IMG/VR virus record: IMGVR_UViG_2541047944_000003
Span: 1 to 44,708 of that record
From: a virus
Lineage: Duplodnaviria; Heunggongvirae; Uroviricota; Caudoviricetes
Length of the DNA stretch: 44,708 nucleotides
Reading direction: 5' to 3' (one strand)
The translations under genes and the position numbers were made by a program. This document shows positions 5,708 through 37,896 of this stretch, one piece after another (within the stretch, counting starts at the first letter, position 1; each line of letters begins with the position of its first letter). Below the pieces are notes generated by a model, which saw only the letters and a program-made list of their open reading frames with translations, did not search any database and was not told the DNA's origin.

Positions 5708-6289
5708 ATGAACAACTCATGGTGGCAGGAACTAATGCATTTTTTCCTGCAAGGAATGACACTTAAACAGTTGATTCATATGCTAATCATCCTGATCATA
5801 TTGATTATTGTTATGCCGGTAAGCGTAAAAGAATGGATAAACCTGCATAATCCAGAAATCCTTCCTCATTACTGGATGTATTACATCCTGTTGTTTTGCG
5901 TTAGCTATGTGCTTAACGGCGTTGTTAATTCCGCTTATCACGCTGTGACTGAAAGAATTGAGGTATTCGCTGCTCAGAAGCGCAAATCTAAAGAAGAAAA
6001 ATATGTGCAAGATTTGTTTGATTCGTTAACTCTTGGAGAAAGAGCGTATTTGGCATTCGCTGTAGCCGCTAATAACCAGCTACAAACGGAAAAGGGCGCT
6101 CATGAATCAATTTCATTGCTCAAAAAAGGACTCCTCGTTCGAAGGCCTCCTGCTGTTGGATATCCTGATACCGACCGTTTCGTTATCCCTGAAAGCTATA
6201 GACATGAGTGCTACATTAGGTTTGCCGGGAAGGCAGACAGCCTTATGGATGAACTTATCGCTCAGGATAAGCATGGCAAAAACAAGTAA
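5708..6289 (+). CDS. sieB: superinfection exclusion protein B-like membrane protein
   Basis: 193-aa protein with two strongly hydrophobic helices; rightward gene embedded in the leftward early operon between N and cIII, as sieB is in lambda. Confidence 0.55.
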   Translation: MNNSWWQELMHFFLQGMTLKQLIHMLIILIILIIVMPVSVKEWINLHNPEILPHYWMYYILLFCVSYVLNGVVNSAYHAVTERIEVFAAQKRKSKEEKYVQDLFDSLTLGERAYLAFAVAANNQLQTEKGAHESISLLKKGLLVRRPPAVGYPDTDRFVIPESYRHECYIRFAGKADSLMDELIAQDKHGKNK

Positions 6290-6788: not shown

Positions 6789-6983
6789 GGGATCAATACA
6801 ATTTGTTGTAATTTGGCGTGGTTTTTTATAACGCTTTGTATTTAATAGTGTTGTTTTTTAGCGTGGATGTATTGCCTCGGCGATGTAAGGAGAGATCAGA
6901 ATTGCGTGGTTTAGTGGGTTGCATCTATTTATTTTTCAATAAATATAATTGGTTATGTGTTTTTAGGTGGGCGAACGTGAGGC

Positions 6984-7009
6984 AAAGAAAACCCGGCGCT
7001 GAGGCCGGG
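6984..7009 (-). terminator. intrinsic terminator after the cI-operon cargo genes
   Basis: Hairpin CCCGGC-gctgag-GCCGGG followed on the minus strand by a T-run, immediately after the stop at 7015. Confidence 0.6.
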
Positions 7010-7014
7010 TTGTA

Positions 7015-7767
7015 TTATGCTGCAAGTCTCTTAACCCAAGTCTCTCTTTTGGAGAATGGTAGAACTTGGCTTGATTCATGGAAGAGTAAGGAGAGTTGTT
7101 GCATTTGATCACCAATTGCTTCGCTGTCTATAACAACAAATCTGTTGTTATACTCCTCACTTGAAGCTTTAAGATCAATTAGTTTCCCAAGCAATGAGTA
7201 AGCACTATTCCAGCTTCCTCCGTGTTTCACGCTTGATGTAAAAACGTATTTAGGTATGTCGGTTTTTATTGTTACAGGGACGGTAATTTGATGTCCACTC
7301 AAGCCATATACGTTTTCACGAAGAGAAAGTGCGTCTCTAAGCTCTGTGTGATATAGATAATCAATAACCATACTTTCAAACTTTTCAGCTTGAACTGGCT
7401 GATACCAGTCTAACGACAAAGTTGATGCGAGTATACCAGCTCTAATTATGTTCGATGTAATCGCACCGACATCCTTTTCTGTTGCCCAAGCAATGATTTC
7501 TCCTCGAGCATTGAGTTCTGCGCCTTCTTTAAGCAGTAATTGTCGTATCTCATCAAGTCGTTTTTTGGTAAGCGAGATCCCTCTTGCCTCCATATTCATT
7601 AAGGCATCGCATCTGTCACTAACTAAATACCTACCATTGACTTCACGGATAAAGGCACCGACATGCTCTCCATCATCACAGTAAGTGAATGGACTGATAA
7701 TTCTCAAGGTCTTGCCTATTGGATGGCATTCGAAACCTAGTTGTGAGATCACTGTTGAGCACATCAT
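7015..7767 (-). CDS. hypothetical protein (250 aa), immunity-region cargo
   Basis: ORF downstream of cI, 4-nt overlap with upstream ORF, AT-rich codon usage unlike backbone; no recognisable motif. Confidence 0.6.
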   Translation of the reverse strand: MMCSTVISQLGFECHPIGKTLRIISPFTYCDDGEHVGAFIREVNGRYLVSDRCDALMNMEARGISLTKKRLDEIRQLLLKEGAELNARGEIIAWATEKDVGAITSNIIRAGILASTLSLDWYQPVQAEKFESMVIDYLYHTELRDALSLRENVYGLSGHQITVPVTIKTDIPKYVFTSSVKHGGSWNSAYSLLGKLIDLKASSEEYNNRFVVIDSEAIGDQMQQLSLLFHESSQVLPFSKRETWVKRLAA

Positions 7768-8321
7768 ATTCCAAACCCCATTTGCCCCGACTCATCTTCA
7801 AGCGGTAAAGGTATTCTCCCAGAGTAAGTTATGTTCAGATGTTTACAGAAGTAATTCCAATACCCTACCAGGTCATCTGGGTTTATGTCATCTTCGATTG
7901 GAAACGCTATTCTATCACTATAGTATCCAGCTTCTTCATAGTATACATGGTAGTGAGCACCGTAAATGATATCTTGGTACTTCGGATGATCGACCTTGTA
8001 ACTATTCGTGTGTTTGTCAAAGTGATAGGTATCTACCGCGAAAACCCTCTTGTTATGATAGAAAGCAATAATATTTATTTTAGGGTAAGAAATCGGGTCA
8101 TCAGGTTCTGAATCCTGATCTGGTTTCCATTTCAGTTCAAACTTTAGCCCTTGTATAGGTATACAATCCTCATCCAAGGGGATGATATGGGCTTGTAGCC
8201 ACATATCAGAGCGACTTGGTTTCTGTTTCCATTTAACGCCAGAAAAGTTAACTATTTTTTTACAATAAAGTACTTTATCAACTTCTACTTGGCTTGGCTG
8301 ATAATCATCTATTTTTGCCAA
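7764..8321 (-). CDS. hypothetical Tyr/His/Asp-rich protein (185 aa), immunity-region cargo
   Basis: ORF 40 bp downstream of cI stop, co-oriented with cI; no recognisable motif. Confidence 0.6.
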   Translation of the reverse strand: MAKIDDYQPSQVEVDKVLYCKKIVNFSGVKWKQKPSRSDMWLQAHIIPLDEDCIPIQGLKFELKWKPDQDSEPDDPISYPKINIIAFYHNKRVFAVDTYHFDKHTNSYKVDHPKYQDIIYGAHYHVYYEEAGYYSDRIAFPIEDDINPDDLVGYWNYFCKHLNITYSGRIPLPLEDESGQMGFGI

Positions 8322-8360
8322 TGTTTACCGCCCTGTAAATTGTAGATAAAAGTGGTTTCA

Positions 8361-9020
8361 TCACCCAAACGTCTCTTCAGGCCATTGGCTGGCGATAACT
8401 TTCCCCACAACGGAACAACTCTCATTGCATGGGATCATTGGGTATTGTGGGTTTAGTGGCTGTAGAAACACCTGACCGCTATCCCTGATCAGTTTCTTGA
8501 AGGTAAATTCATCACCACCAAGTCTGGCTATGCAGAAATCGCCGGGCTCAACAGCTTGCTCAGGGTCAACCAGAATTAACATCCCGTCAGGAAAGCTGGG
8601 TTTGGAACCTGTTGGTGCGGTCATTGAGTTACCTTCAACCTCAAGCCAGAATGCAGAGTCACTGGCTTTTTTGGTTGTGCTTACCAATCTCTCCGCATCG
8701 CCTTTGGTAAAGGTTCTGAGTTCTGGAGAGAACATCCCAGCCTGAACATGAGAAAAAACAGGGTACTCATATTGTTTTTTAACTGGGGCCGATGAGTATT
8801 CGCCAACAGGTGAAAATGTCCCGTCGTGGTTGAATGATATGTTATCAATACCAAGGTATTTAAACACCACACCAATATCACTAAGAGATGGATGACGAGA
8901 TCCGCGCAACCAGTGTCCAATCCCACCCTGCGTCATACCTAGCTCTTCGGCTAACTTCTCTTGAGTTATGCCGAGCTCTTTCATTCTGGATCTAGCCAGT
9001 TCATACCATTTCATTTTCAT
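8361..9020 (-). CDS. cI: CI-type prophage repressor (HTH DNA-binding domain plus S24 peptidase domain)
   Basis: C-terminal domain matches lambda CI as remembered ([19 protein letters not shown]...[12 protein letters not shown]); N-terminal HTH differs; TAAGGA RBS before ATG at 9020. Confidence 0.9.
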
Positions 9021-9131
9021 GTCCTTATTATTACGCTCTGTACTGGAACCATCCATGCACAATGTGTATTTTTATTTGTATTCGTAAAGTACATATTGTA
9101 TTTTTTTATTCGTGTTTACTATGGAGGGCAT
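9021..9131. promoter_or_regulatory. OR region with divergent promoters for cI and cro
   Basis: AT-rich 111-bp divergent intergenic region containing operator-like site at 9084-9102. Confidence 0.6.
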
Positions 9132-11547: not shown

Positions 11548-13194
11548 ATGTGTGAAACCTATATTTTTAGGTTCCGTGACCTAGGAAAAAGTGAAGGATT
11601 TACCATCGAACAACACAATAACATTGCTCGCCAAGAAGGGAATGTTTGGTGGGGGTGGTGGGCTAAATCTGGTGAGCGTTTCCCATCACTGGAACTAAAA
11701 AATGCGGCAGAAAAAAATAAACAAATATATTTTTTTGATTCAGGGCGGCTTAAATTTTATACCGCTGTATTAAAGGATACTTGCTCGTCAGCTTTAGGGG
11801 ATATAAAAAAACAATCTCCTAAGGATGGTCGCAGAACCCCAGCATATTATAATGAGAATGAGTTGCTGGGATGGTTAAATGTTTCTGAGATTACAGAAAT
11901 TGATGCTTGTGATATCCTCAGAAAATTCACATATATTCCATTGGATGCATTGTTTGCAGGTAATAAAGATTTAGATGAGCAACTTTTCAACAAAATTGTC
12001 TTTTCTTCAGCTGAATTAAAAAAACAAGATAGAACTATTTGGAAGATTAGACCTGCAAATGATAAAGATTTACAGCATGAGTCATTAGCATCTCATTATG
12101 TTCCTTATAATTTCAGTCGGAAGTATAGCCAAAAAAAAGGGGAGTTTATAATTTGGCTTTCGGATATTCATTTTGATGGCGGAAATGGGAAACATGCATT
12201 TCCGACACAAGATAATGATCAGCTAAAATGTTTATCCTCTCGAGTGGTGGAGTTGGCTGGAAAATATAATAATGGGAGTAAATGTGCTGGGTTGGCTATT
12301 TCAGGTGATTTGACGTGGCAGTCACAGAAAGAGGGATTCAAGCAAGCTTTGAATTTTATCAAAGATGTTAGTTCTTCTCTTAGCCTGACAACGGATGATA
12401 TAATTATTTGTCCTGGGAATCACGATGTAGGTCTGGTTTCTAAAGATGAGTACTTTAAAATCGTGGGTAAGCCTGTAACGGATAAACCATGGAAAATTCT
12501 GGCGGAAAACTACCATAGAGAAAGTAAACTTAATTATATAAAATTTTATCGAGATTTTTTTCAAAGGGAACCTGAAGAAAATTTATCACAAGGAAGGAAA
12601 TTTTTACTAGGTGGCCATAAAGTTGTTGAAATAGCCGCATTGAACTCATGCGTATTACAACAAGTAAAAGATTCATTTTTGGGCATGGGATTTGTCGGTG
12701 AGCAACAACTCAGTGATGTTGCAAAATCTATGGGATGGATGAATGATAGCGGAGGTGATATACTCAAAAAGAAAGGTGTTATAAGAATTGCTATGCTTCA
12801 CCATCACCTAACTTCTATTAATGAAGTTGAAGATGCCTATCTTGATTCAAGATATAGTGTAACATTAGATGCAGAGCGATTATTACGTTGGGTAGTAAGG
12901 CATAAAGTTGATTATATTCTGCATGGTCATATGCACAGAAGTAGTTCTATTACAATAACAAAAAAACTATCTCCGTTAGAACCAGTGACGGATTCAAATC
13001 CTGAACATACATTCCAAATTGTTTCTTTGGGAAGTTCAGGAGTTGTTAGTTCGGAATTGCCAAGTCAGGATTGTGCTAACTATGCATGCGTACTGGATTT
13101 TTCTGGCGAAAAGCTAACTTTTAATTTTTTCAAGCTTGATAAACAGAGCGGAGAAAAAGTGGCGGCTACTTATATTGTTGAAGGTTTATTATGA
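11548..13194 (+). CDS. calcineurin-like metallophosphoesterase with unknown ~190-aa N-terminal domain (548 aa)
   Basis: Ordered motifs SDIHFDGG (DxH), ISGDLTW (GD), CPGNHD (GNHD), MLHHH, LHGHMH (GHxH); GAGGA RBS; AT-rich. Confidence 0.7.
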   Translation: MCETYIFRFRDLGKSEGFTIEQHNNIARQEGNVWWGWWAKSGERFPSLELKNAAEKNKQIYFFDSGRLKFYTAVLKDTCSSALGDIKKQSPKDGRRTPAYYNENELLGWLNVSEITEIDACDILRKFTYIPLDALFAGNKDLDEQLFNKIVFSSAELKKQDRTIWKIRPANDKDLQHESLASHYVPYNFSRKYSQKKGEFIIWLSDIHFDGGNGKHAFPTQDNDQLKCLSSRVVELAGKYNNGSKCAGLAISGDLTWQSQKEGFKQALNFIKDVSSSLSLTTDDIIICPGNHDVGLVSKDEYFKIVGKPVTDKPWKILAENYHRESKLNYIKFYRDFFQREPEENLSQGRKFLLGGHKVVEIAALNSCVLQQVKDSFLGMGFVGEQQLSDVAKSMGWMNDSGGDILKKKGVIRIAMLHHHLTSINEVEDAYLDSRYSVTLDAERLLRWVVRHKVDYILHGHMHRSSSITITKKLSPLEPVTDSNPEHTFQIVSLGSSGVVSSELPSQDCANYACVLDFSGEKLTFNFFKLDKQSGEKVAATYIVEGLL

Positions 13195-14027
13195 AATTAC
13201 TTATTACTGATTTGGATAATACACTGTACGATTGGGTGAGTTTTTACTCCCAGTCATTTAGTGCCATGGCAGAGCAATTATCTAAGGATATTGATGTGCC
13301 TTTGGATACGCTCCTGTCAGAATATAAAACCATTCATCAGAAGTTTGGTAACTCAGAAAAACCATTTGCTACTTTAGAGCTACCATCTGTGATATCTTAC
13401 TTTGGAACTAATGATAAAACGATTTTGCAGGAAAAACTTACTAATGTTTTTCAGGCGTTTAGCACAAAACGTAACCAGACATTAATGTTGTATCCTACTG
13501 TAAAAGAAACGCTGGAATTATTGAAGAAACGGGGGGTAAAAATTGTAGGGCATACTGAAGCTTTGGAGTTTAATTCTTTATATCGTCTGAATAAGCTTGG
13601 TATAATTGATTTTTTTGATCATCTTTATACATTGGAAGATATTCATAATATCCACCCGAATCCCAAAAATGCGAAAAAAATACCTGTGAAGGATGACTTT
13701 GTAATTAGATTGTCCTGCGCTGAGTCAAAGCCAAACCCTAAATTGCTTGAGCACATATGTTCTTTTGAAGGAGTTAGTGTTGAAGATGCGGTATACATTG
13801 GCGATTCTATAACTAAAGATATGTCCATGGCTAAAGCTGTGGGGGTTACTGCTGTTTGGGCTAATTATGGGCGACAGTTTTCACCTGAATTGTGGAAAGT
13901 TTTAGTGAAAATCACACACTGGAAAGATGCAGATGTGGAGAGGGAGGAACAACTTAGAAAAGCATTCTCCAATGTTAGACCTGATTATGTTGTTAATAGT
14001 TTTTCAGAGCTGCTGAATTTGAAATGA
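13191..14027 (+). CDS. HAD-superfamily phosphatase/hydrolase (278 aa)
   Basis: Motif I LITDLDNT (DxDxT), motif IV IGDSITKD; ATGA start/stop overlap with upstream gene. Confidence 0.7.
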   Translation: MKLLITDLDNTLYDWVSFYSQSFSAMAEQLSKDIDVPLDTLLSEYKTIHQKFGNSEKPFATLELPSVISYFGTNDKTILQEKLTNVFQAFSTKRNQTLMLYPTVKETLELLKKRGVKIVGHTEALEFNSLYRLNKLGIIDFFDHLYTLEDIHNIHPNPKNAKKIPVKDDFVIRLSCAESKPNPKLLEHICSFEGVSVEDAVYIGDSITKDMSMAKAVGVTAVWANYGRQFSPELWKVLVKITHWKDADVEREEQLRKAFSNVRPDYVVNSFSELLNLK

Positions 14028-16678: not shown

Positions 16679-17761
16679 TTAGAACTGATAAACCAGACCT
16701 ACAGCGACGATGTCGTCGGTATCAATACCAGCTGTTTTGGTAAACTTACTATCGTCAATTAAGTTGATTTTGTAATCAACAAAAGTGGACATGTTTTTAT
16801 TAAAGTAGTAAGTAGCACCGACATCGACATACTTGACTAAGTCTCGGTCACCATGAACACCAAGGTCTTTACCTTTTGACTGAAGGTAAGCAACAGATGG
16901 GCGCAGACCGAAGTCAAACTGATATTGTGCTACTGCTTCAAAGTTTTGTGCTTTGTTTGCAATATGGTTATTACCAAAAACGGTCATATTCTGAGTTTCA
17001 GAATATGTGGTAGCCAGATAGATATTGTTCGCATCATATTTCAGGCCTGCAGCCCATACTTCCGCATTTTTGCCGGAGGCATTGAATTTGCTCTTACCAT
17101 AGGCGACCTGACCGTCAGTGCGATCTGATTTAGCATAGGTTGCACCCACGCCGAATCCTTCATACTCATAAGTAGTGGAGAAACCGAAACCATCACCATT
17201 GGCTTCAGTTACGTCAGTGCGGTCATTTTTACCCTGATACTGAGCAGCAAAGTTCAGGCCATCGACCAGACCAAAGAAGTCGTTGTTACGATAAGTTGCA
17301 ACACCAGTAGTGCGACCAGTCATGAACACATCTGTTTGGGTCCAGGTATCACCACCGAATTCTGGCAGAACGTCAGTCCACGCACCGATGTCGTATGCTA
17401 CACCGTAGTTACGGCCGTAATCGATTGAGCCGTAATCACCAAATTTCAGGCCTGCAAATGCAAGACGGGTTTTGTCTTTGGAAGAACCTTGAGATTCAGC
17501 ACGGTTGCCTTTGAATTCATATTCCCACTGACCGAAACCAGTCAGTTGATCGTTGATTTGGGTTTCACCTTTGAAGCCAAGACGGGCATAAGTAGTATCA
17601 CCATCATCTGCATCATTAGAGGAGAAGTAGTGCTTGGCATTAACTTTCCCGTATAGATCCAGCTTGTTACTGTCTTTATTATAAATTTCAGCTGCCTGAG
17701 CAGACATCGCCATCAGTACTGATGCAGCTACAGCAGAAATTGCCACTGTTAATTTTTTCAT
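16679..17761 (-). CDS. nmpC: OmpC-family outer membrane porin (NmpC/Lc-like)
   Basis: Signal peptide [39 protein letters not shown] start and C-terminal VGLVYQF typical of enterobacterial general porins; intact, no IS interruption. Confidence 0.85.
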
Positions 17762-18187
17762 TGTACGCCCTTTTTTTGAACTATTATTAAAAAATGATGT
17801 CACTGCGCGATAAATATTCATCTAATCAATGTGATTATTTCAAGATGTAAGTTTTAGTTTCTCATTTAATTTGTGAAGTAGATCTCTATTTTTATCTGAA
17901 CCTTTTCTATCTAATCCTATTCATGGCTCTTGTTTGAACGAAAATAAATCTATTAGCTAATTTATATTAATGGCACTTATTTATAAGCACTCTATAATTC
18001 TTTAGCTTAATTTAAACAAACTAAAAATAACATCGGAAATTATTCATTGGTTATTTGTTGAAGTTTTCTTATGTATTTGTGGTGGTGTTTTGAACACTCG
18101 GTGGCATTCTCACAAATATCATTTAGTAGTTTACGTACGTAAAAAATTGGTTATGCTGTTAAGAGTGGTTACTTCGTCACACAGCTT

Positions 18188-19576: not shown

Positions 19577-21148
19577 TTACTGAGAGCTCAGATCAACTTT
19601 CCAGGGCAACAGATCGCGTACCCGGTTTGCCGGCCAGTCCTGGATATGTTCAATGACGTAACGCAGCCACTTTTCTGGCTCCACATTGTTCAGACGGCAT
19701 GTGCCGATCAGCGAGTACAACACCGCCGCATGTTCACCACCGCTGTCGGAACCCGCGAACATCCAGTTTTTCCGGCCTACGGCCACTCCCCGTAAGGCGT
19801 TCTCTGCGATGTTGTTGTCGATTTCCACCCAGCCATTACTGCAGTACACGTTCAGTGCATCCCACTGTTTCAGCAGGTATGCGAACGCTTTTGCCGTATC
19901 TGAGTGACGCGACAGTGTTTTCATCTGTTGCTGTATCCAGTCATACAGTGACTGCATCAGTGGCGCGGCTCTGGCTTTTCTTGCCGCCAGACGCTGTTCT
20001 GCTGAACAGCCCCGGACCTCTGCCTCGATGGCATACAGTTCACCGATACGCTGCAGGGCTTCCGTGGTGATGTAGGTGGACGCTCTTGCATGCACATCGT
20101 GGATTTTTCTCCGGGCATGAGCCATACACGCGGCTTCCGTTATTCTGCCGGATTCGTATAACGCCCGGTAACCACCGTAAGCATCGGCCTGAAGCACACC
20201 GCTGTAACCGGCCAGGTGATTTTGTGGATGGATACCTTTCCGGTCCGGACTGTACGCGAACCAGACCGCCGGGGGCATCTGTGAACCGGCGTTACGGTCA
20301 TCACGGACGTAGACCCACAGCCGGGCTGTCCGGGTTTTACCGCTGCCCGGCTCCTGGACCGGGACGGGGATATCATCAGCATGGACTTTACCGGGCATCA
20401 GCACATACTGGCGCAGGACGTCATACAGCGGCTCCAGCAGTTCAGCAACAGCACCTGTCCAGCGCCCCAGTGTGGCACGGCTCAGCTCCACTCCCTGACG
20501 ACGGTATATTTCTGACTGGCGGTATAACGGCAGATGGTCTGCATATTTCCCGGTGACAACATGGGCCAGAAGCCCCGCTCCGGCATAACTGCGTGCAATG
20601 GGTTTTGAAGGTACTGGTGCCTGCACGATATGGTCGCACCGGCAACAGGCCTGTTTCGGACGTTGTGTTTCGATAACCTTAAAGGCGCTGCTGATAAGCT
20701 CCAGTTGCTCTGACACATCACATCCCAGAGAACTGAGTTCACCACCACAGGCAGGACAGCATTCCTCTTCCGGCCGGATAACCCGGGTTTCACGGGGAAG
20801 TGAGGCCGGTAACGGTTTACGGGCTGAAGACTGGCGCAGGGCGGATGGCAGTACCGGGTCATATTGCTCACCCAGCGTTTCCGCCATTTCTTCCTGAAGT
20901 GCGCTGATTCGCTCCTGTGCTTCCTGTATCTGCCGTTCGGTTTTTGCACGAAGTTTTTCTGAGCTTTTACCGAACTGCATACGTTGCAGTTTCGCAACCA
21001 GCGCCTTCAGCCGGTTGATTTCGGAAGCATAAGCCGCCACCCGCTGTGAGAGCAGGCGGTTGTATTCAGCCATCTGGCGGATGGTGTCCTGTTGCGTCTG
21101 CAACAGTGCCCGCAGGCGGGCGTTCTCATGAGCAAGTGAGGTGTCCAT
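19577..21148 (-). CDS. tnpC: IS66-family transposase TnpC (523 aa)
   Basis: Coiled-coil N-terminus, Cys-rich zinc-ribbon region and DDE-type core typical of IS66 transposases. Confidence 0.85.
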
Positions 21149-21167
21149 ATCCTCACTTTACAACGGG

Positions 21168-21515
21168 TTATATGCGGATTCCAGCGCGTTCCGTTCGTTT
21201 CGGGTGCTTCCAGTTGATACCTTCAAGAAGCATGGATAACTGAGCCGGAGTAAGGTGCACCTTGCCGTCACGGGTGACTGGCCAGACGAAGCGGCCCCGC
21301 TCCAGGCGTTTGGTGAAGAGGCACAGTCCGTCACTGTCAGCCCACAACACTTTTATCTGGTCACCCCGGCGTCCGCGGAAGATGAACAGGTGTCCGGAGA
21401 ACGGGTCATCCTTCAGGACGTTCTGAACTTTTGATGCCAGGCCGTTAAAGCCATTTCGCATATCGGTGATACCTGCAACCAGCCAGATACGCGAACCTGC
21501 AGGGAGAGATATCAT
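21168..21515 (-). CDS. tnpB: IS66-family accessory protein TnpB (Orf2)
   Basis: 115-aa product with GITDMRNGFNGLA...IFRGRRGDQIKVLW typical of IS66 Orf2. Confidence 0.8.
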   Translation of the reverse strand: MISLPAGSRIWLVAGITDMRNGFNGLASKVQNVLKDDPFSGHLFIFRGRRGDQIKVLWADSDGLCLFTKRLERGRFVWPVTRDGKVHLTPAQLSMLLEGINWKHPKRTERAGIRI

Positions 21516-22192
21516 CAGTGGCTGCTCCCTTTTATTTCGCGGATAAGTGTCTGTAATAACGCCGGCGTCAGTTTACCTTTAAGCCTGAGAGTTCCGGCCG
21601 GCAGAACCAGCTCACAACACAGACTGTCGGACGGTGTATTTATCTGCTCTGGTTCCTGTGCGGGGGCCGGGATTTTATTATCCGGCTCCGGCGTTAACGT
21701 CACGGGAAGCAGTGCCGGCATATTTTTTCCGGAAGGCAGCAGGCCACCTTTCCGGTATTGATGACGCCAGTTGAAGAGCAGGTTATCGTTGATTCCGTTT
21801 TCCCGGGCGATCTGCGCCACACAGGCTCCGGGCTGCAGTGACTGCTCCACTAAGGCGATTTTAAACTCATAAGGGAAGTTGGGCCGCCGGGGACGTTTTT
21901 TTACCACGGGGGCTTCGGATATAACGGTGCTTTCAGGACGTACGACTGGTACCGTGGAAAATTGTCCGTAAAGGCAGGCATCAAGTTCCTGCTCCGACAT
22001 GCCTGCGGGCAAAGGCCACGAAAGGCCAGCTCTCCGAAAGCGCACGAACATACTACAAACTGTTGATTTTGGTACACCCAGGCGACGCCCGGCCACAACC
22101 CGGGGTAAATGTTCTTCAAAGTGAAGACGTAAAGCTTCAGTGATCCAGGTCCGGTGTTTCATACGATAGTGTCCATTAAAAATGATGGACAT
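21515..22192 (-). CDS. tnpA: IS66-family accessory protein TnpA (Orf1) with extended N-terminal HTH-like region
   Basis: C-terminal half carries IS66 Orf1-like KRPRRPNFPYEFKIALVEQS segment; true start uncertain. Confidence 0.65.
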   Translation of the reverse strand: MSIIFNGHYRMKHRTWITEALRLHFEEHLPRVVAGRRLGVPKSTVCSMFVRFRRAGLSWPLPAGMSEQELDACLYGQFSTVPVVRPESTVISEAPVVKKRPRRPNFPYEFKIALVEQSLQPGACVAQIARENGINDNLLFNWRHQYRKGGLLPSGKNMPALLPVTLTPEPDNKIPAPAQEPEQINTPSDSLCCELVLPAGTLRLKGKLTPALLQTLIREIKGSSH

Positions 22193-33569: not shown

Positions 33570-36123
33570 ACCGGTAGGCGATCTGGTCGTTGATTTAAGT
33601 CTGGATGCGGCCAGGTTTGACGAGCAGATGGCCAGAGTCAGGCGTCATTTTTCCGGTACGGAAAGTGATGCGAAAAAAACAGCGGCAGTCGTTGAACAGT
33701 CGCTGAGCCGACAGGCGCTGGCTGCACAGAAAGCGGGGATTTCCGTCGGGCAGTATAAAGCCGCCATGCGTATGCTGCCTGCACAGTTCACCGACGTGGC
33801 CACGCAGCTTGCAGGCGGGCAAAGTCCGTGGCTGATCCTGCTGCAACAGGGTGGTCAGGTGAAGGACTCCTTCGGCGGGATGATCCCCATGTTCAGGGGG
33901 CTTGCCGGTGCGATCACCCTGCCGATGGTGGGGGCCACCTCGCTGGCGGTGGCGACCGGTGCGCTGGCGTATGCCTGGTATCAGGGCAACTCAACCCTGT
34001 CCGATTTCAACAAAACGCTGGTCCTTTCCGGTCATCAGTCGGGTCTGACGGCAGATCGTATGCTGGTCCTGTCCAGAGCCGGGCAGGCGGCAGGGCTGAC
34101 GTTTAACCAGACCAGCGAGTCACTCAGTGCACTGGTTAAGGCGGGGGTAAGCGGTGAGGCTCAGATTGCGTCCATCAGCCAGAGTGTGGCGCGTTTCTCC
34201 TCTGCATCCGGCGTGGAGGTGGACAAGGTCGCTGAAGCCTTCGGGAAGCTGACCACAGACCCGACGTCGGGGCTGACGGCGATGGCACGCCAGTTCCATA
34301 ACGTGACGGCGGAGCAGATTGCGTATGTTGCTCAGTTGCAGCGTTCCGGCGATGAAGCCGGGGCATTGCAGGCGGCGAACGAGGCCGCAACGAAAGGGTT
34401 TGATGACCAGACCCGCCGCCTGAAAGAGAACATGGGCACGCTGGAGACCTGGGCAGACAGGACAGCGCGGGCATTCAAATCCATGTGGGATGCGGTGCTG
34501 GATATTGGTCGTCCTGATACCGCGCAGGAGATGCTGATTAAGGCAGAGGCCGCGTTTAAGAAAGCAGACGATATCTGGAATCTGCGCAAGGATGATTATT
34601 TTGTTAACGATGAAGCACGGGCGCGTTACTGGGATGATCGTGAAAAGGCCCGTCTTGCGCTTGAAGCCGCCCGAAAGAAGGCTGAGCAGCAGACTCAACA
34701 GGACAAAAATGCGCAGCAGCAGAGCGATACCGAAGCGTCACGGCTGAAATATACCGAAGAGGCGCAGAAGGCTTACGAACGCCTGCAGACGCCGCTGGAG
34801 AAATATACCGCCCGTCAGGAAGAACTGAATAAGGCACTGAAAGACGGGAAAATCCTGCAGGCAGATTACAACACGCTGATGGCGGCAGCGAAAAAGGATT
34901 ATGAAGCGACGCTGAAAAAGCCGAAGCAGTCCGGCGTGAAGGTGTCTGCGGGCGATCGTCAGGAAGACAGTGCTCATGCTGCCCTGCTGACGCTTCAGGC
35001 AGAACTCCGGATGCTGGAGAAGCATGCCGGAGCGAATGAGAAAATCAGCCAGCAGCGCCGGGATTTGTGGAAGGCGGAGAATCAGTTCGCGGTACTGGAG
35101 GAGGCGGCGCAACGTCGCCAGCTGTCTGCACAGGAGAAATCCCTGCTGGCGCATAAAGACGAGACGCTGGAGTACAAGCGCCAGCTGGCTGCACTTGGCG
35201 ATAAGGTCACGTATCAGGAGCACCTGAATGCGCTGGCGCAGCAGGCGGATAAATTCGCACAGCAGCAACGGGCAAAACGGGCCGCCATTGATGCGAAAAG
35301 CCGGGGGCTGACTGACCGGCAGGCAGCGCGGGAAGCCACGGAACAGCGCCTGAAGGAACAGTATGGCGATAATCCGCTGGCGCTGAATAACGTCATGTCA
35401 GAGCAGAAAAAGACCTGGGCGGCTGAAGACCAGCTTCGCGGGAGCTGGATGGCAGGCCTGAAGTCCGGCTGGAGTGAGTGGGAAGAGAGCGCCACGGACA
35501 GTATGTCGCAGGTTAAAAGTGCTGCCACGCAGACCTTTGATGGTATTGCACAGAATATGGCGGCGATGCTGACCGGCAGTGAACAGAACTGGCGCAGCTT
35601 CACCCGCTCCGTGCTGTCCATGATGACAGAAATTCTGCTTAAGCAGGCAATGGTGGGGATTGTCGGGAGTATCGGCAGCGCCATTGGCGGTGCTGCCAGT
35701 GGTGGAGCATCAGCGTCAGGTGGTACAGCCATTCAGGCCGCTGCGGCGAAATTCCATTTTGCGACCGGGGGATTTACGGGAACCGGCGGCAAATATGAGC
35801 CAGCGGGGATTGTTCACCGTGGTGAATTTGTCTTCACGAAGGAGGCAACCAGCCGGATTGGCGTGGGGAATCTCTACCGGCTGATGCGCGGCTATGCCAC
35901 CGGCGGTTATGTCGGTACACCGGGCAGTCTGGCGGACAGCCGGTCGCAGGCGTCCGGGACGTTTGAGCAGAATAACCATGTGGTGATTAACAACGACGGC
36001 ACGAACGGTCAGATAGGGCCACAGGCACTGAAGGCTGTTTATGACGTAGCCCGTAAGGCGGCAATGGATGTTGTGACCGGGCAGATGCGCGATGGTGGTC
36101 TGTTCTCCGGAGGTGGACGATGA
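33562..36123 (+). CDS. H: tail tape measure protein H
   Basis: 853-aa product matching lambda H length and sequence. Confidence 0.95.
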   Translation: MAEPVGDLVVDLSLDAARFDEQMARVRRHFSGTESDAKKTAAVVEQSLSRQALAAQKAGISVGQYKAAMRMLPAQFTDVATQLAGGQSPWLILLQQGGQVKDSFGGMIPMFRGLAGAITLPMVGATSLAVATGALAYAWYQGNSTLSDFNKTLVLSGHQSGLTADRMLVLSRAGQAAGLTFNQTSESLSALVKAGVSGEAQIASISQSVARFSSASGVEVDKVAEAFGKLTTDPTSGLTAMARQFHNVTAEQIAYVAQLQRSGDEAGALQAANEAATKGFDDQTRRLKENMGTLETWADRTARAFKSMWDAVLDIGRPDTAQEMLIKAEAAFKKADDIWNLRKDDYFVNDEARARYWDDREKARLALEAARKKAEQQTQQDKNAQQQSDTEASRLKYTEEAQKAYERLQTPLEKYTARQEELNKALKDGKILQADYNTLMAAAKKDYEATLKKPKQSGVKVSAGDRQEDSAHAALLTLQAELRMLEKHAGANEKISQQRRDLWKAENQFAVLEEAAQRRQLSAQEKSLLAHKDETLEYKRQLAALGDKVTYQEHLNALAQQADKFAQQQRAKRAAIDAKSRGLTDRQAAREATEQRLKEQYGDNPLALNNVMSEQKKTWAAEDQLRGSWMAGLKSGWSEWEESATDSMSQVKSAATQTFDGIAQNMAAMLTGSEQNWRSFTRSVLSMMTEILLKQAMVGIVGSIGSAIGGAASGGASASGGTAIQAAAAKFHFATGGFTGTGGKYEPAGIVHRGEFVFTKEATSRIGVGNLYRLMRGYATGGYVGTPGSLADSRSQASGTFEQNNHVVINNDGTNGQIGPQALKAVYDVARKAAMDVVTGQMRDGGLFSGGGR

Positions 36124-36449
36124 AAACCTTCCGCTGGAAAGTGAAACCCGGTATGGATGTAGCTTCGGCCCCTTCCGTAAGAAAGGTGCGCTTTGGTGAT
36201 GGCTATTCCCAGCGAGCGCCTGCCGGGCTGAACGCTGACCTGAAAACGTACAGCGTGACGCTTTCTGTTCCCCGTTGGGAGGCCACAGCGCTGGAGTCGT
36301 TTCTGGCTGAGCACGGGGGCTGGAAAGCCTTTCTGTGGACGCCGCCTTATGAGTGGCGGCAGATAAAGGTGACCTGCGCAAAATGGTCGTCGCGGGTCAG
36401 TATGCTGCGTGTTGAGTTCAGCGCAGAGTTTGAACAGGTGGTGAACTGA
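36120..36449 (+). CDS. M: tail tip protein M
   Basis: 109-aa product as in lambda M. Confidence 0.95.
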   Translation: MKTFRWKVKPGMDVASAPSVRKVRFGDGYSQRAPAGLNADLKTYSVTLSVPRWEATALESFLAEHGGWKAFLWTPPYEWRQIKVTCAKWSSRVSMLRVEFSAEFEQVVN

Positions 36450-37147
36450 TGCAGGATATCCGGCAGGAAACACTGAATGAATGCACCCGTGCGGAGCAGT
36501 CGGCCAGCGTGGTGCTCTGGGAAATCGATCTGACAGAGGTCGGTGGAGAGCGTTATTTTTTCTGTAATGAGCAGAACGAAAAAGGTGAGCCGGTCACCTG
36601 GCAGGGGCGACAGTATCAGGCGTATCCCATTCAGGGGAGCGGTTTTGAACTGAATGGCAAAGGCACCAGTACGCGCCCCACGCTGACGGTTTCTAACCTG
36701 TACGGTATGGTCACCGGGATGGTGGAAGATCTGCAGAGTCTGGTCGGCGGAACGGTGGTCAGGCGTAAGGTTTACGCCCGTTTTCTGGATGCGGTGAATT
36801 TCGTCAACGGAAACAGCGATGCCGATCCGGAGCAGGAGGTGATCAGCCGCTGGCGCGTCGAGCAGTGCAGCGAACTGAGCACGGTCAGTGCCTCCTTTGT
36901 GTTGTCCACGCCGACGGAAACGGATGGTGCTGTTTTTCCGGGGCGCATCATGCTGGCCAACACCTGCACCTGGACCTATCGCGGTGATGAGTGCGGTTAT
37001 AGCGGTCCGGCGGTCGCGGATGAATATGACCAGCCGACGTCCGATATCACGAAGGATAAATGCAGCAAATGCCTGAGCGGTTGTAAGTTCCGCAATAACG
37101 TCGGCAACTTTGGCGGCTTCCTTTCCATTAACAAACTTTCGCAGTAA
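36449..37147 (+). CDS. L: tail tip protein L
   Basis: 232-aa product as in lambda L, including C-terminal Cys cluster. Confidence 0.95.
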   Translation: MQDIRQETLNECTRAEQSASVVLWEIDLTEVGGERYFFCNEQNEKGEPVTWQGRQYQAYPIQGSGFELNGKGTSTRPTLTVSNLYGMVTGMVEDLQSLVGGTVVRRKVYARFLDAVNFVNGNSDADPEQEVISRWRVEQCSELSTVSASFVLSTPTETDGAVFPGRIMLANTCTWTYRGDECGYSGPAVADEYDQPTSDITKDKCSKCLSGCKFRNNVGNFGGFLSINKLSQ

Positions 37148-37152
37148 ATCCC

Positions 37153-37896
37153 ATGACACAGACAGAATCAGCGATTCTGGCGCACGCCCGGCGATGTGCG
37201 CCAGCGGAGTCGTGCGGCTTCGTGGTGAGAACGCCGGAGGGGGAAAGATATTTTCCCTGCGTGAATATCTCCGGTGAGCCGGAGGATTATTTCCGGATGT
37301 CGCCGGAGGACTGGCTGCAGGCAGAAATGCAGGGTGAGATTGTGGCGCTGGTCCACAGTCATCCCGGTGGTCTGCCCTGGCTGAGTGAGGCCGACCGGCG
37401 GCTGCAGGTGCAGAGTGATTTGCCGTGGTGGCTGGTCTGCCGGGGGGCGATTCATAAGTTCCGCTGTGTGCCGCATCTCACCGGGCGGCGCTTTGAGCAC
37501 GGGGTGACGGACTGTTACACGCTGTTCCGGGACGCTTACCATCTGGCGGGGATTGAGATGCCGGACTTTCATCGTGAGGATGACTGGTGGCGTAACGGCC
37601 AGAATCTCTATCTTGATAATCTGGAGGCCACAGGGCTGTATCAGGTGCCGTTGTCAGCGGCGCAGCCGGGCGATGTGCTGCTGTGCTGCTTTGGTTCATC
37701 GGTGCCGAATCATGCCGCCATTTACTGTGGTGACGGCGAGCTGCTGCACCATATTCCTGAACAACTGAGCAAACGAGAGAGGTACACCGACAAATGGCAG
37801 CGACGCACACACTCCCTCTGGCGTCACCGGGCATGGCACGCATCTGCCTTTACGGGGATTTACAACGATTTGGCCGCCGCATCGATCTTCGTGTGA
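37153..37896 (+). CDS. K: tail tip assembly protein K (JAB/MPN plus NlpC/P60-like)
   Basis: 247-aa product as in lambda K with HSHP motif. Confidence 0.95.
   Translation: MTQTESAILAHARRCAPAESCGFVVRTPEGERYFPCVNISGEPEDYFRMSPEDWLQAEMQGEIVALVHSHPGGLPWLSEADRRLQVQSDLPWWLVCRGAIHKFRCVPHLTGRRFEHGVTDCYTLFRDAYHLAGIEMPDFHREDDWWRNGQNLYLDNLEATGLYQVPLSAAQPGDVLLCCFGSSVPNHAAIYCGDGELLHHIPEQLSKRERYTDKWQRRTHSLWRHRAWHASAFTGIYNDLAAASIFV

Follow-up and report, generated by a model that had tools for sequence, protein, structure and literature searches.

The locus and its genes

IMG/VR virus record IMGVR_UViG_2541047944_000003 (Caudoviricetes), analysed at its full length of 44,708 nucleotides (nt) and hereafter called the window, is a lambda-like prophage. 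Directly downstream of its repressor gene cI, on the same strand, lie two genes, here called A and B, which take the place that rexA and rexB have in phage lambda and are considered in this work as a candidate anti-phage cassette of lysogens. The segment consists of the following features (lengths of products in amino acids, aa):

7764..8321, minus strand: gene A, 185 aa, 21.8 kDa, isoelectric point 5.3, TTG start
7015..7767, minus strand: gene B, 250 aa, 28.1 kDa
8361..9056, minus strand: cI, with Pfam domains HTH_3 and Peptidase_S24, annotated as cI in PhiR57_1 and CFT073
8322..8360, minus strand: spacer between cI and A, 39 nt, from sequence, terminator scan and fold
6984..7011, minus strand: intrinsic terminator that closes the operon, from terminator scan and fold
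7012..8359, no strand: exchangeable cassette, delimited by blastn break points against lambda, 2G7b and the Stx1 phage

A sequence-only reading of the window had described two coupled open reading frames (ORFs) of 185 and 250 aa behind cI, and their coordinates and coupling were found as claimed: the stop codon of A and the start codon of B share an ATGA, which amounts to a 4-nt overlap. Gene cI is presumed to be the first gene of a cI-A-B operon. The 39-nt spacer holds neither a terminator-like site in the scan nor a stable fold (z = +1.0), and a G-rich GGGCGG is found in it a few nucleotides 5' of the TTG of A. At the other end, four bases past the TAA of B, begins a GC-rich hairpin of 8 bp (ACCCGGCC-ucagcg-GGCCGGGU then UUUUCUUU, 7011..6984), with a fold of -17.2 kcal/mol that was matched by none of 200 shuffles (z = -3.2). 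The intrinsic terminator at the end of the operon is thus a strong one, and it is part of the flank shared with lambda and does not belong to the cassette.

The pair is AT-rich compared to the phage backbone, in agreement with the sequence-only reading. Guanine-cytosine (GC) content is 0.382 in A, 0.406 in B and 0.463 in cI, compared to 0.504 in the whole window, while GC at third codon positions is 0.36, 0.34 and 0.45 in A, B and cI, respectively; the A-B segment overall (39.5% vs 50.4% for the window) falls in the 6th percentile among equal-sized windows. Protein A is indeed rich in Asp (10.8%), Tyr (8.6%) and His (4.3%). The lack of transmembrane segments in both proteins was likewise borne out, the maximal Kyte-Doolittle mean over 19 residues being 0.45 in A and 1.19 in B, and no signal peptide was found in either of them.

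Exchange of rexA-rexB for the A-B pair

Comparison with lambda by blastn delimits the cassette on both sides. Positions 6890-7011 of the window correspond to lambda 35708-35826 at 90% identity, in a block that contains the hairpin and ends at the stop codon of rexB, whereas positions 8360-8771 correspond to lambda 37226-37637 at 93% identity and comprise the C-terminal half of cI up to its stop. From these two flanks it follows that 1348 bases (7012-8359) replace lambda 35827-37225, which is exactly rexA-rexB. The placement of the pair in the rexAB slot, previously proposed from its position downstream of cI, is therefore supported by an exact swap between conserved flanks. The same hairpin with its U-tract lies 3' of rexB in lambda, and it is also present in the flanks of phage 2G7b and of the Shiga toxin (Stx) 1 converting phage.

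The break points nearly coincide in all comparisons: 7011 and 8360 against lambda (lambda 35826 and 37226), 7011 and 8359 against 2G7b, and 7012 and 8363 against the Stx1 phage. Phages 2G7b and PhiR11_1 and the Stx1/Stx2 phages have the same cI (98%) and carry other cargo between the same break points. Conversely, an identical A-B pair was found behind a different cI, together with a different N, in the Stx1a phage Stx1_121427, and the pair also stands behind a lambda-type cI in several IMG/VR contigs (L036-38). The sharp shared break points and the recurring cargo mark the stretch between the cI stop and the terminator as a hotspot of exchange, with A-B as one of its recurrent occupants.

The slot of phages 2G7b and PhiR11_1 is occupied by a single ORF of 283 aa (L008 2141-2992 in 2G7b), and that of the Stx1/Stx2 phages by a single ORF of 173 aa (b63 of the Stx1 converting phage, L009 2476-2997). 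Neither protein had a Pfam or PADLOC match, and both are candidates for further lysogen-expressed cargo.

The repressor gene of the window is itself a mosaic. Its C-terminal S24 half has 93% DNA identity to lambda cI, and its N-terminal DNA-binding half is of the type that Stx1/Stx2 phages have (98%; the Stx1 converting phage, 1717, 2851 and the PA series), so that a lysogen should be immune to those Stx phages.

Linkage, conservation and distribution of the pair

Linkage was assessed in an IMG/VR scan of 80 loci with a relative of B. A relative of A overlaps the start of B in all 80, and the next upstream ORF on the same strand is an S24-type (cI-type) repressor in 66 of them; clustering at 60% identity separates these repressors into at least 18 groups. 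In seven loci a 131-aa helix-turn-helix (HTH) ORF resembling short Salmonella prophage repressors is found upstream of A, and in five an additional 113-aa gene is inserted between the repressor and A. The latter gene, which occurs in one lineage (L052-L057, about 2052-2393), matches the PADLOC single-gene candidate PDC-S43 (E = 2e-36), which means that two candidate systems are stacked in one repressor operon. Identity to A and identity to B are closely correlated across loci (r = 0.97), indicating that the pair travels as a unit.

The junction between the two genes is ATGA in 58 of the 80 loci, and a 13-nt overlap was seen in the three inspected among the remaining 22. Gene A starts with GTG in 55 loci, TTG in 24 and ATG in one; these counts are not independent, as many of the loci are near-identical, and a GTG or TTG start recurs in 13 loci that span about 40-100% identity to A. 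The retention of a weak start codon in A together with the coupling to B suggests that the two proteins may be produced at a low level and in a fixed ratio.

The order repressor-A-B, divergent from a cro-like gene, was found in prophages of Salmonella, Klebsiella, Aeromonas caviae and Thorsellia. The same order is present in the Pseudomonas phage phPA-G, in which B is only 29.5% identical; in Thorsellia and Pseudomonas a further gene or a gap separates the repressor from A. In the deposited annotation of the Pseudomonas phage (VB_PaD_phPA-G, PP083311.1) there is a gap at the place of A, where an unannotated ORF (L018 2920-3504) overlapping the start of B is a relative of A, with an HPHLH motif and a GQMGFDV C-terminus. 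A 216-aa gene with a weak match to PDC-S48 lies between cI and this relative of A.

Across Enterobacterales, Aeromonas and Pseudomonas, relatives of A and B keep their length at 37-84% identity. For B, 47 clusters of relatives were found, of about 250 aa and 47-84% identity, in Salmonella, Yersinia, Klebsiella, Serratia, Photorhabdus, Aeromonas and Thorsellia. For A, 26 clusters of relatives were found, and an exhaustive HMMER search of 1.84 billion representative proteins gave only 32 hits, so that A represents a small family. Divergence among relatives amounts to 0.10-0.34 per site at non-synonymous positions, while synonymous divergence is saturated (0.7-0.9). By their conserved length and by this excess of synonymous over non-synonymous divergence, A and B are evidently real genes.

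At 99% identity or more, the pair is present in 241 of 5426 complete E. coli genomes (4.4%), always on the chromosome and in one copy per genome; carriers include CFT073, Nissle 1917, clone D i14 and the type strain. The pair is also common in Salmonella prophages. In the GenBank records of the PhiR phages that carry the pair, both genes are listed as hypothetical. These phages were presumably isolated by Brenes and Laub (2025), to judge from the record names and the ECOR13 host.

Protein A

The predicted structure of A is confident and beta-rich (predicted local distance difference test, pLDDT, 85.5), and the fold search returned no solved structural analogue. The search of BFVD gave a single uncharacterised siphovirus protein, which is uninformative. 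Protein A is thus a soluble protein whose fold is unfamiliar. Sequence and profile searches of the PDB gave only noise (Kelch-like SAKe designer repeat proteins, DARPins and enteropeptidase) and were discarded. The Pfam family DUF6978 was matched over the C-terminal third only, at 22.0 bits and below the cut-off of 29.6; distant relatives of A scored 19.5-22.9 bits against this family.

Seven residues (W31, R92, N106, H123, H125, F158 and P173) are invariant among 25 relatives, down to 21% identity, and four more (D97, H104, K22 and Q180) are nearly so. As H104-x-N106 and H123-x-H125 are located on predicted strands, each pair faces one side, and the D..HxN..HxH cluster is read here as a probable metal or ligand site. 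Membership in the histidine-triad, cupin or His-Me-finger enzymes was considered and rejected, the fold around the HxH motif not being that of these families. The C-terminus has a conserved S-G-Q tail that is poorly ordered in the monomer model (pLDDT 68 at 171-180 and 43 at 181-185), and this tail is a candidate element for docking to a partner.

Protein B

Two domains were recognised in B. Residues 1-118 correspond to DUF1828 and have a fold like that of YbjN and type III secretion chaperones; the DUF1828 match covers residues 26-110 (33.5 bits vs a cut-off of 22). Residues 129-250 probably correspond to DUF1829, a member of the Pfam clan PDDEXK, and have a PD-(D/E)xK fold with an alpha-beta-beta-beta-alpha-beta core. 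DUF1829 was not reported by hmmscan in our analysis; it has been assigned to residues 155-241 of B by HHblits with 98.8% probability (Table S5 of DeWeirdt et al., PMC13092281), an assignment with which the fold is in accord. The fold search matched several PD-(D/E)xK enzymes, including Can2 (10.1), PspGI (9.8), BstEII (9.4) and NgoMIV (9.3), followed by Bax1, VC1899, Cfr10I, MunI, NucS and AgeI.

In the C-terminal half ten residues (G155, S157, G158, H159, P164, T177, W186, G194, D198 and R209) are invariant, the Pseudomonas relative included. The canonical D..(D/E)xK motif is absent from the aligned relatives of B: H159 stands at the start of strand 2, and no E/D-x-K is found on strand 3. The sequence-only reading had recognised no catalytic motif in the pair. 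This remains correct for B in so far as the canonical motif is concerned, but it misses both the PD-(D/E)xK fold of B and the invariant His/Asp/Asn cluster of A.

The N-terminal half has C3, C14, D32, D51, D54 and G89-E90 as invariant residues, along with a few others that are mostly Gly, Ser and Pro. A catalytic role for this domain was considered and rejected, as DDGEH, E60 and R62 are not kept in the Pseudomonas relative; these are more likely lineage-specific interface residues.

Relation to predicted and known defence systems

Among the PADLOC families only PDC-M24A and PDC-M24B were matched, each by its own partner of the pair, in keeping with the two-gene composition of the PDC-M24 candidate. 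The match of B to PDC-M24B (E = 4.7e-10) covers residues 2-249 of 250, and all 16 members of the B family match this model at full length, with E-values down to 8e-12. Resemblance is remote for A, whose match to PDC-M24A (E = 4.8e-4) is weak and restricted to residues 104-163. On these profile matches the A-B pair appears as a remote branch of PDC-M24. The PHROGs families in which A and B fall are of unknown function, and our literature search found no functional reports on DUF1828, DUF6978 or PDC-M24.

Both exact proteins have been listed as "Predicted novel defense gene" by DefensePredictor (DeWeirdt, Mahoney and Laub, Science 2026, PMC13092281), with log-odds of 5.64 for B (WP_000968518.1) and 4.90 for A (WP_001062368.1) at a cut-off of 4. 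Among the transcription units tested in that study, nine of the 19 with scores of 4-6.6 were defensive (Table S6), which sets an empirical prior near one half before positional evidence is considered. The pair had been called unknown in the sequence-only reading; this stands for its mechanism, but not for its family relationships, given the PDC-M24B match of the B family and the DefensePredictor listing of both proteins. The kind of element, namely exclusion or defence cargo in a repressor operon, is already known; the proteins are uncharacterised, and the pair had been flagged computationally twice before.

Several systems reported in the same study can be compared to the pair. DS-34, which has been validated as defensive, consists of a prophage repressor gene and the gene directly downstream (PMC13092281), an arrangement like that of cI and A-B; its downstream protein is AbiZ-like and located in the membrane, and is unrelated to A or B. 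DUF1829 has newly been implicated in defence through DS-6B of the likewise validated HipAD system (DS-6; PMC13092281), which has a DUF1829-like domain as B does. In DS-6B, however, this domain occurs with DUF3037 and a HipA-like kinase instead of DUF1828 and A, and the DUF1829 match is weak (HHpred 0.78).

The likeness to lambda RexA/RexB lies in the arrangement: in both cases two genes on the same strand follow cI directly and are bounded by the cI stop and the same hairpin, and, like the Rex proteins, A and B presumably owe their expression in lysogens to the repressor promoter. Homology of A-B to RexA/RexB was considered and rejected, as none was found in family or fold searches. RexB is a polytopic membrane protein, whereas A and B lack transmembrane segments. 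Compared to PD-(D/E)xK defence effectors, such as type II restriction enzymes and Can2/Card1, B differs in having GxSGH, T177, D198 and R209 in place of D...(D/E)xK, and its N-terminal domain is neither a CARF nor a DNA-recognition domain; the fold of this N-terminal domain resembles that of the YbjN family and the class I type III secretion chaperones. The overlapping exclusion genes of phage Fc02 were also considered and dismissed, as they are small, unrelated and located upstream of a Mu-like repressor.

Further genes of Nissle prophage 3 have been suspected to be involved in resistance to lambda and Stx phages (Bury et al. 2018). Between sieB and cI, a table of that study places two hypothetical genes (1291 and 1292) which the comparison strains lack; their correspondence to A and B is one of position only. 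The protective gene "pr" of the same study was examined as a possible counterpart of the cI described here and rejected: Table S2 places pr (1294) beyond cI (1293), away from these two genes. With pr on the other side of cI, the study gives no direct evidence on A-B.

Interpretation and alternative explanations

We consider it probable that the A-B cassette, in place of Rex, is expressed in lysogens and provides two cytoplasmic proteins directed against phages. A role as defence cargo is favoured because the same cI is found with and without the pair, and because the pair moves between unrelated repressors, has a foreign composition and scores positively with two independent predictors. The proposal in the sequence-only reading of an exclusion or defence locus in the rexAB slot is likewise upheld, as a candidate, by the exact swap with rexAB, the exchange of cargo behind the same cI and the intact pairs in all 80 loci.

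According to this proposal, the pair would be a mobile two-gene cassette riding in the repressor operon of temperate phages, transcribed in lysogens together with cI from the maintenance promoter up to the lambda-type terminator, and most likely protecting the lysogen against other phages, as the replaced Rex system does. A and B might form a cytoplasmic complex of low abundance, in which the YbjN/secretion-chaperone-like domain of B would hold A, possibly through the conserved, poorly ordered C-terminal tail of A, or would bind a phage product. Infection would then release or activate an enzymatic activity that stops phage development. This activity could reside in the probable metal-binding His cluster of A, in a non-canonical His-based site of the nuclease-fold domain of B, or in both, with nucleic acid as the most plausible target and possibly at a cost to the cell. 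Such a system would have no membrane component, unlike Rex; as the pair includes no membrane protein, membrane depolarisation of the Rex type is unlikely.

A number of observations weigh against this proposal. PDC-M24 is itself only a computational candidate, and PDC-M24A is matched by just eight of 25 members of the A family, with E-values of 2e-4 or higher and over the C-terminal third only. Neither WP_000968518.1 nor WP_001062368.1 is among the tested transcription units of Table S6 (PMC13092281), and no published experiment on the pair was found. The DUF1829 domain of DS-6B has been proposed to be an antitoxin-like, DNA-binding partner and no enzyme (PMC13092281). As for B, the lack of an invariant acidic-x-Lys and the loss of K173 in the Pseudomonas relative make nuclease activity doubtful, and the putative His cluster of A could be structural. 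Transcription of A-B with cI in lysogens is deduced from the sequence, and the strict association with repressor genes would be explained equally well by a part in the lysis-lysogeny switch.

Such a role, in which the pair would tune the lysis-lysogeny decision of its own phage or the maintenance of the prophage and not act on other phages, is in our view improbable, although less so than the other alternatives. A and B might, for example, bind DNA or switch proteins, or sense the state of the host, and thereby stabilise or release lysogeny. The near-exclusive linkage to repressors of at least 18 groups suits a switch function as well as it suits lysogenic expression, and the DNA-binding role proposed for the DUF1829-like domain of DS-6B (PMC13092281) would be in line with it. 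So would a report that describes RexA as acting on the lambda bistable switch independently of RexB (PMC11077077). However, the pair sits behind repressors with unrelated DNA-binding domains and operators, which would require an interaction independent of both sequence and partner, and the unrelated cargo in phages with the same cI is the pattern of an accessory gene and not that of a switch component. The AT-rich composition and the two independent defence predictors also point away from it.

Two further explanations seem to us rather less probable still, and about equally so. The pair could be an addiction cassette of the toxin-antitoxin kind that stabilises itself or the prophage, or kills upon shut-off of the repressor operon, with no anti-phage role of its own; alternatively, it could be lysogenic-conversion cargo that alters host physiology, such as stress tolerance, metabolism or colonisation, in ways unrelated to phages. 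Addiction would agree with two tightly coupled genes that keep weak starts, are inherited as a unit and move between phages, and with the DUF1829-like domain of the protein that has been proposed to act as an antitoxin-like partner to the HipA-like kinase DS-6A (PMC13092281). Yet neither protein matches a toxin or antitoxin family in Pfam, NCBIfam or PADLOC. Both are also large, classical type II toxins and antitoxins being smaller than A and B. Since many prophage toxin-antitoxin pairs act in defence, this explanation overlaps with that of an anti-phage cassette. An effect on host physiology would be consistent with the carriage of the pair by both uropathogenic and probiotic members of one lineage (CFT073, Nissle 1917 and clone D i14) and by the type strain, and with the inclusion of biofilm and exopolysaccharide regulators (8q8o, AmyR) in the YbjN family, which the N-terminal domain of B resembles in fold. 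It is harder to reconcile with the lack of signal peptides and membrane segments, with a slot that holds exclusion genes in lambda, with the spread of the pair over phages of very different hosts and lifestyles (Aeromonas, Pseudomonas and Thorsellia), and with the positive defence predictions for both genes.

A more specific form of the anti-phage proposal can be offered only tentatively, and we regard it as rather unlikely in all its parts: that the pair is a new, membrane-independent exclusion or abortive-infection system, in which A, with its unseen fold and probable metal-binding His cluster, is the effector, and B, with a chaperone-like domain and a catalytically rewired nuclease fold, holds or triggers it; that this system has taken the Rex slot in many temperate phages; and that some of the as yet unexplained resistance of Nissle 1917 and CFT073 to phages could be due to it.

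RexAB is among the oldest and least understood phage exclusion systems. Should A-B prove defensive, unrelated soluble proteins would have naturally taken over the function of RexAB, and the cI-to-terminator interval of lambdoid phages would be a hotspot with sharp borders that could be mined like those of P2 and P4. Near-identical phages with rexAB, A-B, the 283-aa gene or the 173-aa gene behind the same or a similar cI allow a direct comparison. Given the occurrence of the pair in 4.4% of complete E. coli genomes and in many Salmonella prophages, any phenotype would bear on phage therapy and on the prediction of host range. The fold of A is new and bears a conserved His cluster, and B lends itself to the study of a PD-(D/E)xK fold whose active site has been replaced.

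Other features of the window

Several other accessory genes were identified in the window. The superinfection-exclusion gene SieB (PF14163) is located at 5708-6289 on the plus strand, between N and ral as in lambda; together with A-B, this places two exclusion-type loci within 2.6 kb in the immunity-left region. A second AT-rich cargo (GC 0.36) is found at 11548-14027 on the plus strand, immediately downstream of the replication gene P, a position taken by ren in related prophages. This cargo consists of a 548-aa protein with PUA-like and metallophosphoesterase domains, whose gene overlaps that of a 278-aa HAD hydrolase, and the two proteins are 77-78% identical to DS-9A and DS-9B of a validated defence system (DeWeirdt et al. 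2026, PMC13092281). The window therefore holds, in addition to SieB, at least one defence system with experimental backing.

Between the lysis and terminase genes, at 19577-22192 on the minus strand, lies an element of the IS66 family comprising three ORFs (HTH_Tnp_1, TnpB_IS66 and DDE_Tnp_IS66); this insertion in the late region may have inactivated the prophage. Finally, a general porin gene of 380 aa (Porin_1, E = 2e-151), annotated as OmpD in PhiR57_1, is located downstream of Q on the opposite strand (16679-17821, minus) and represents lysogenic-conversion cargo.

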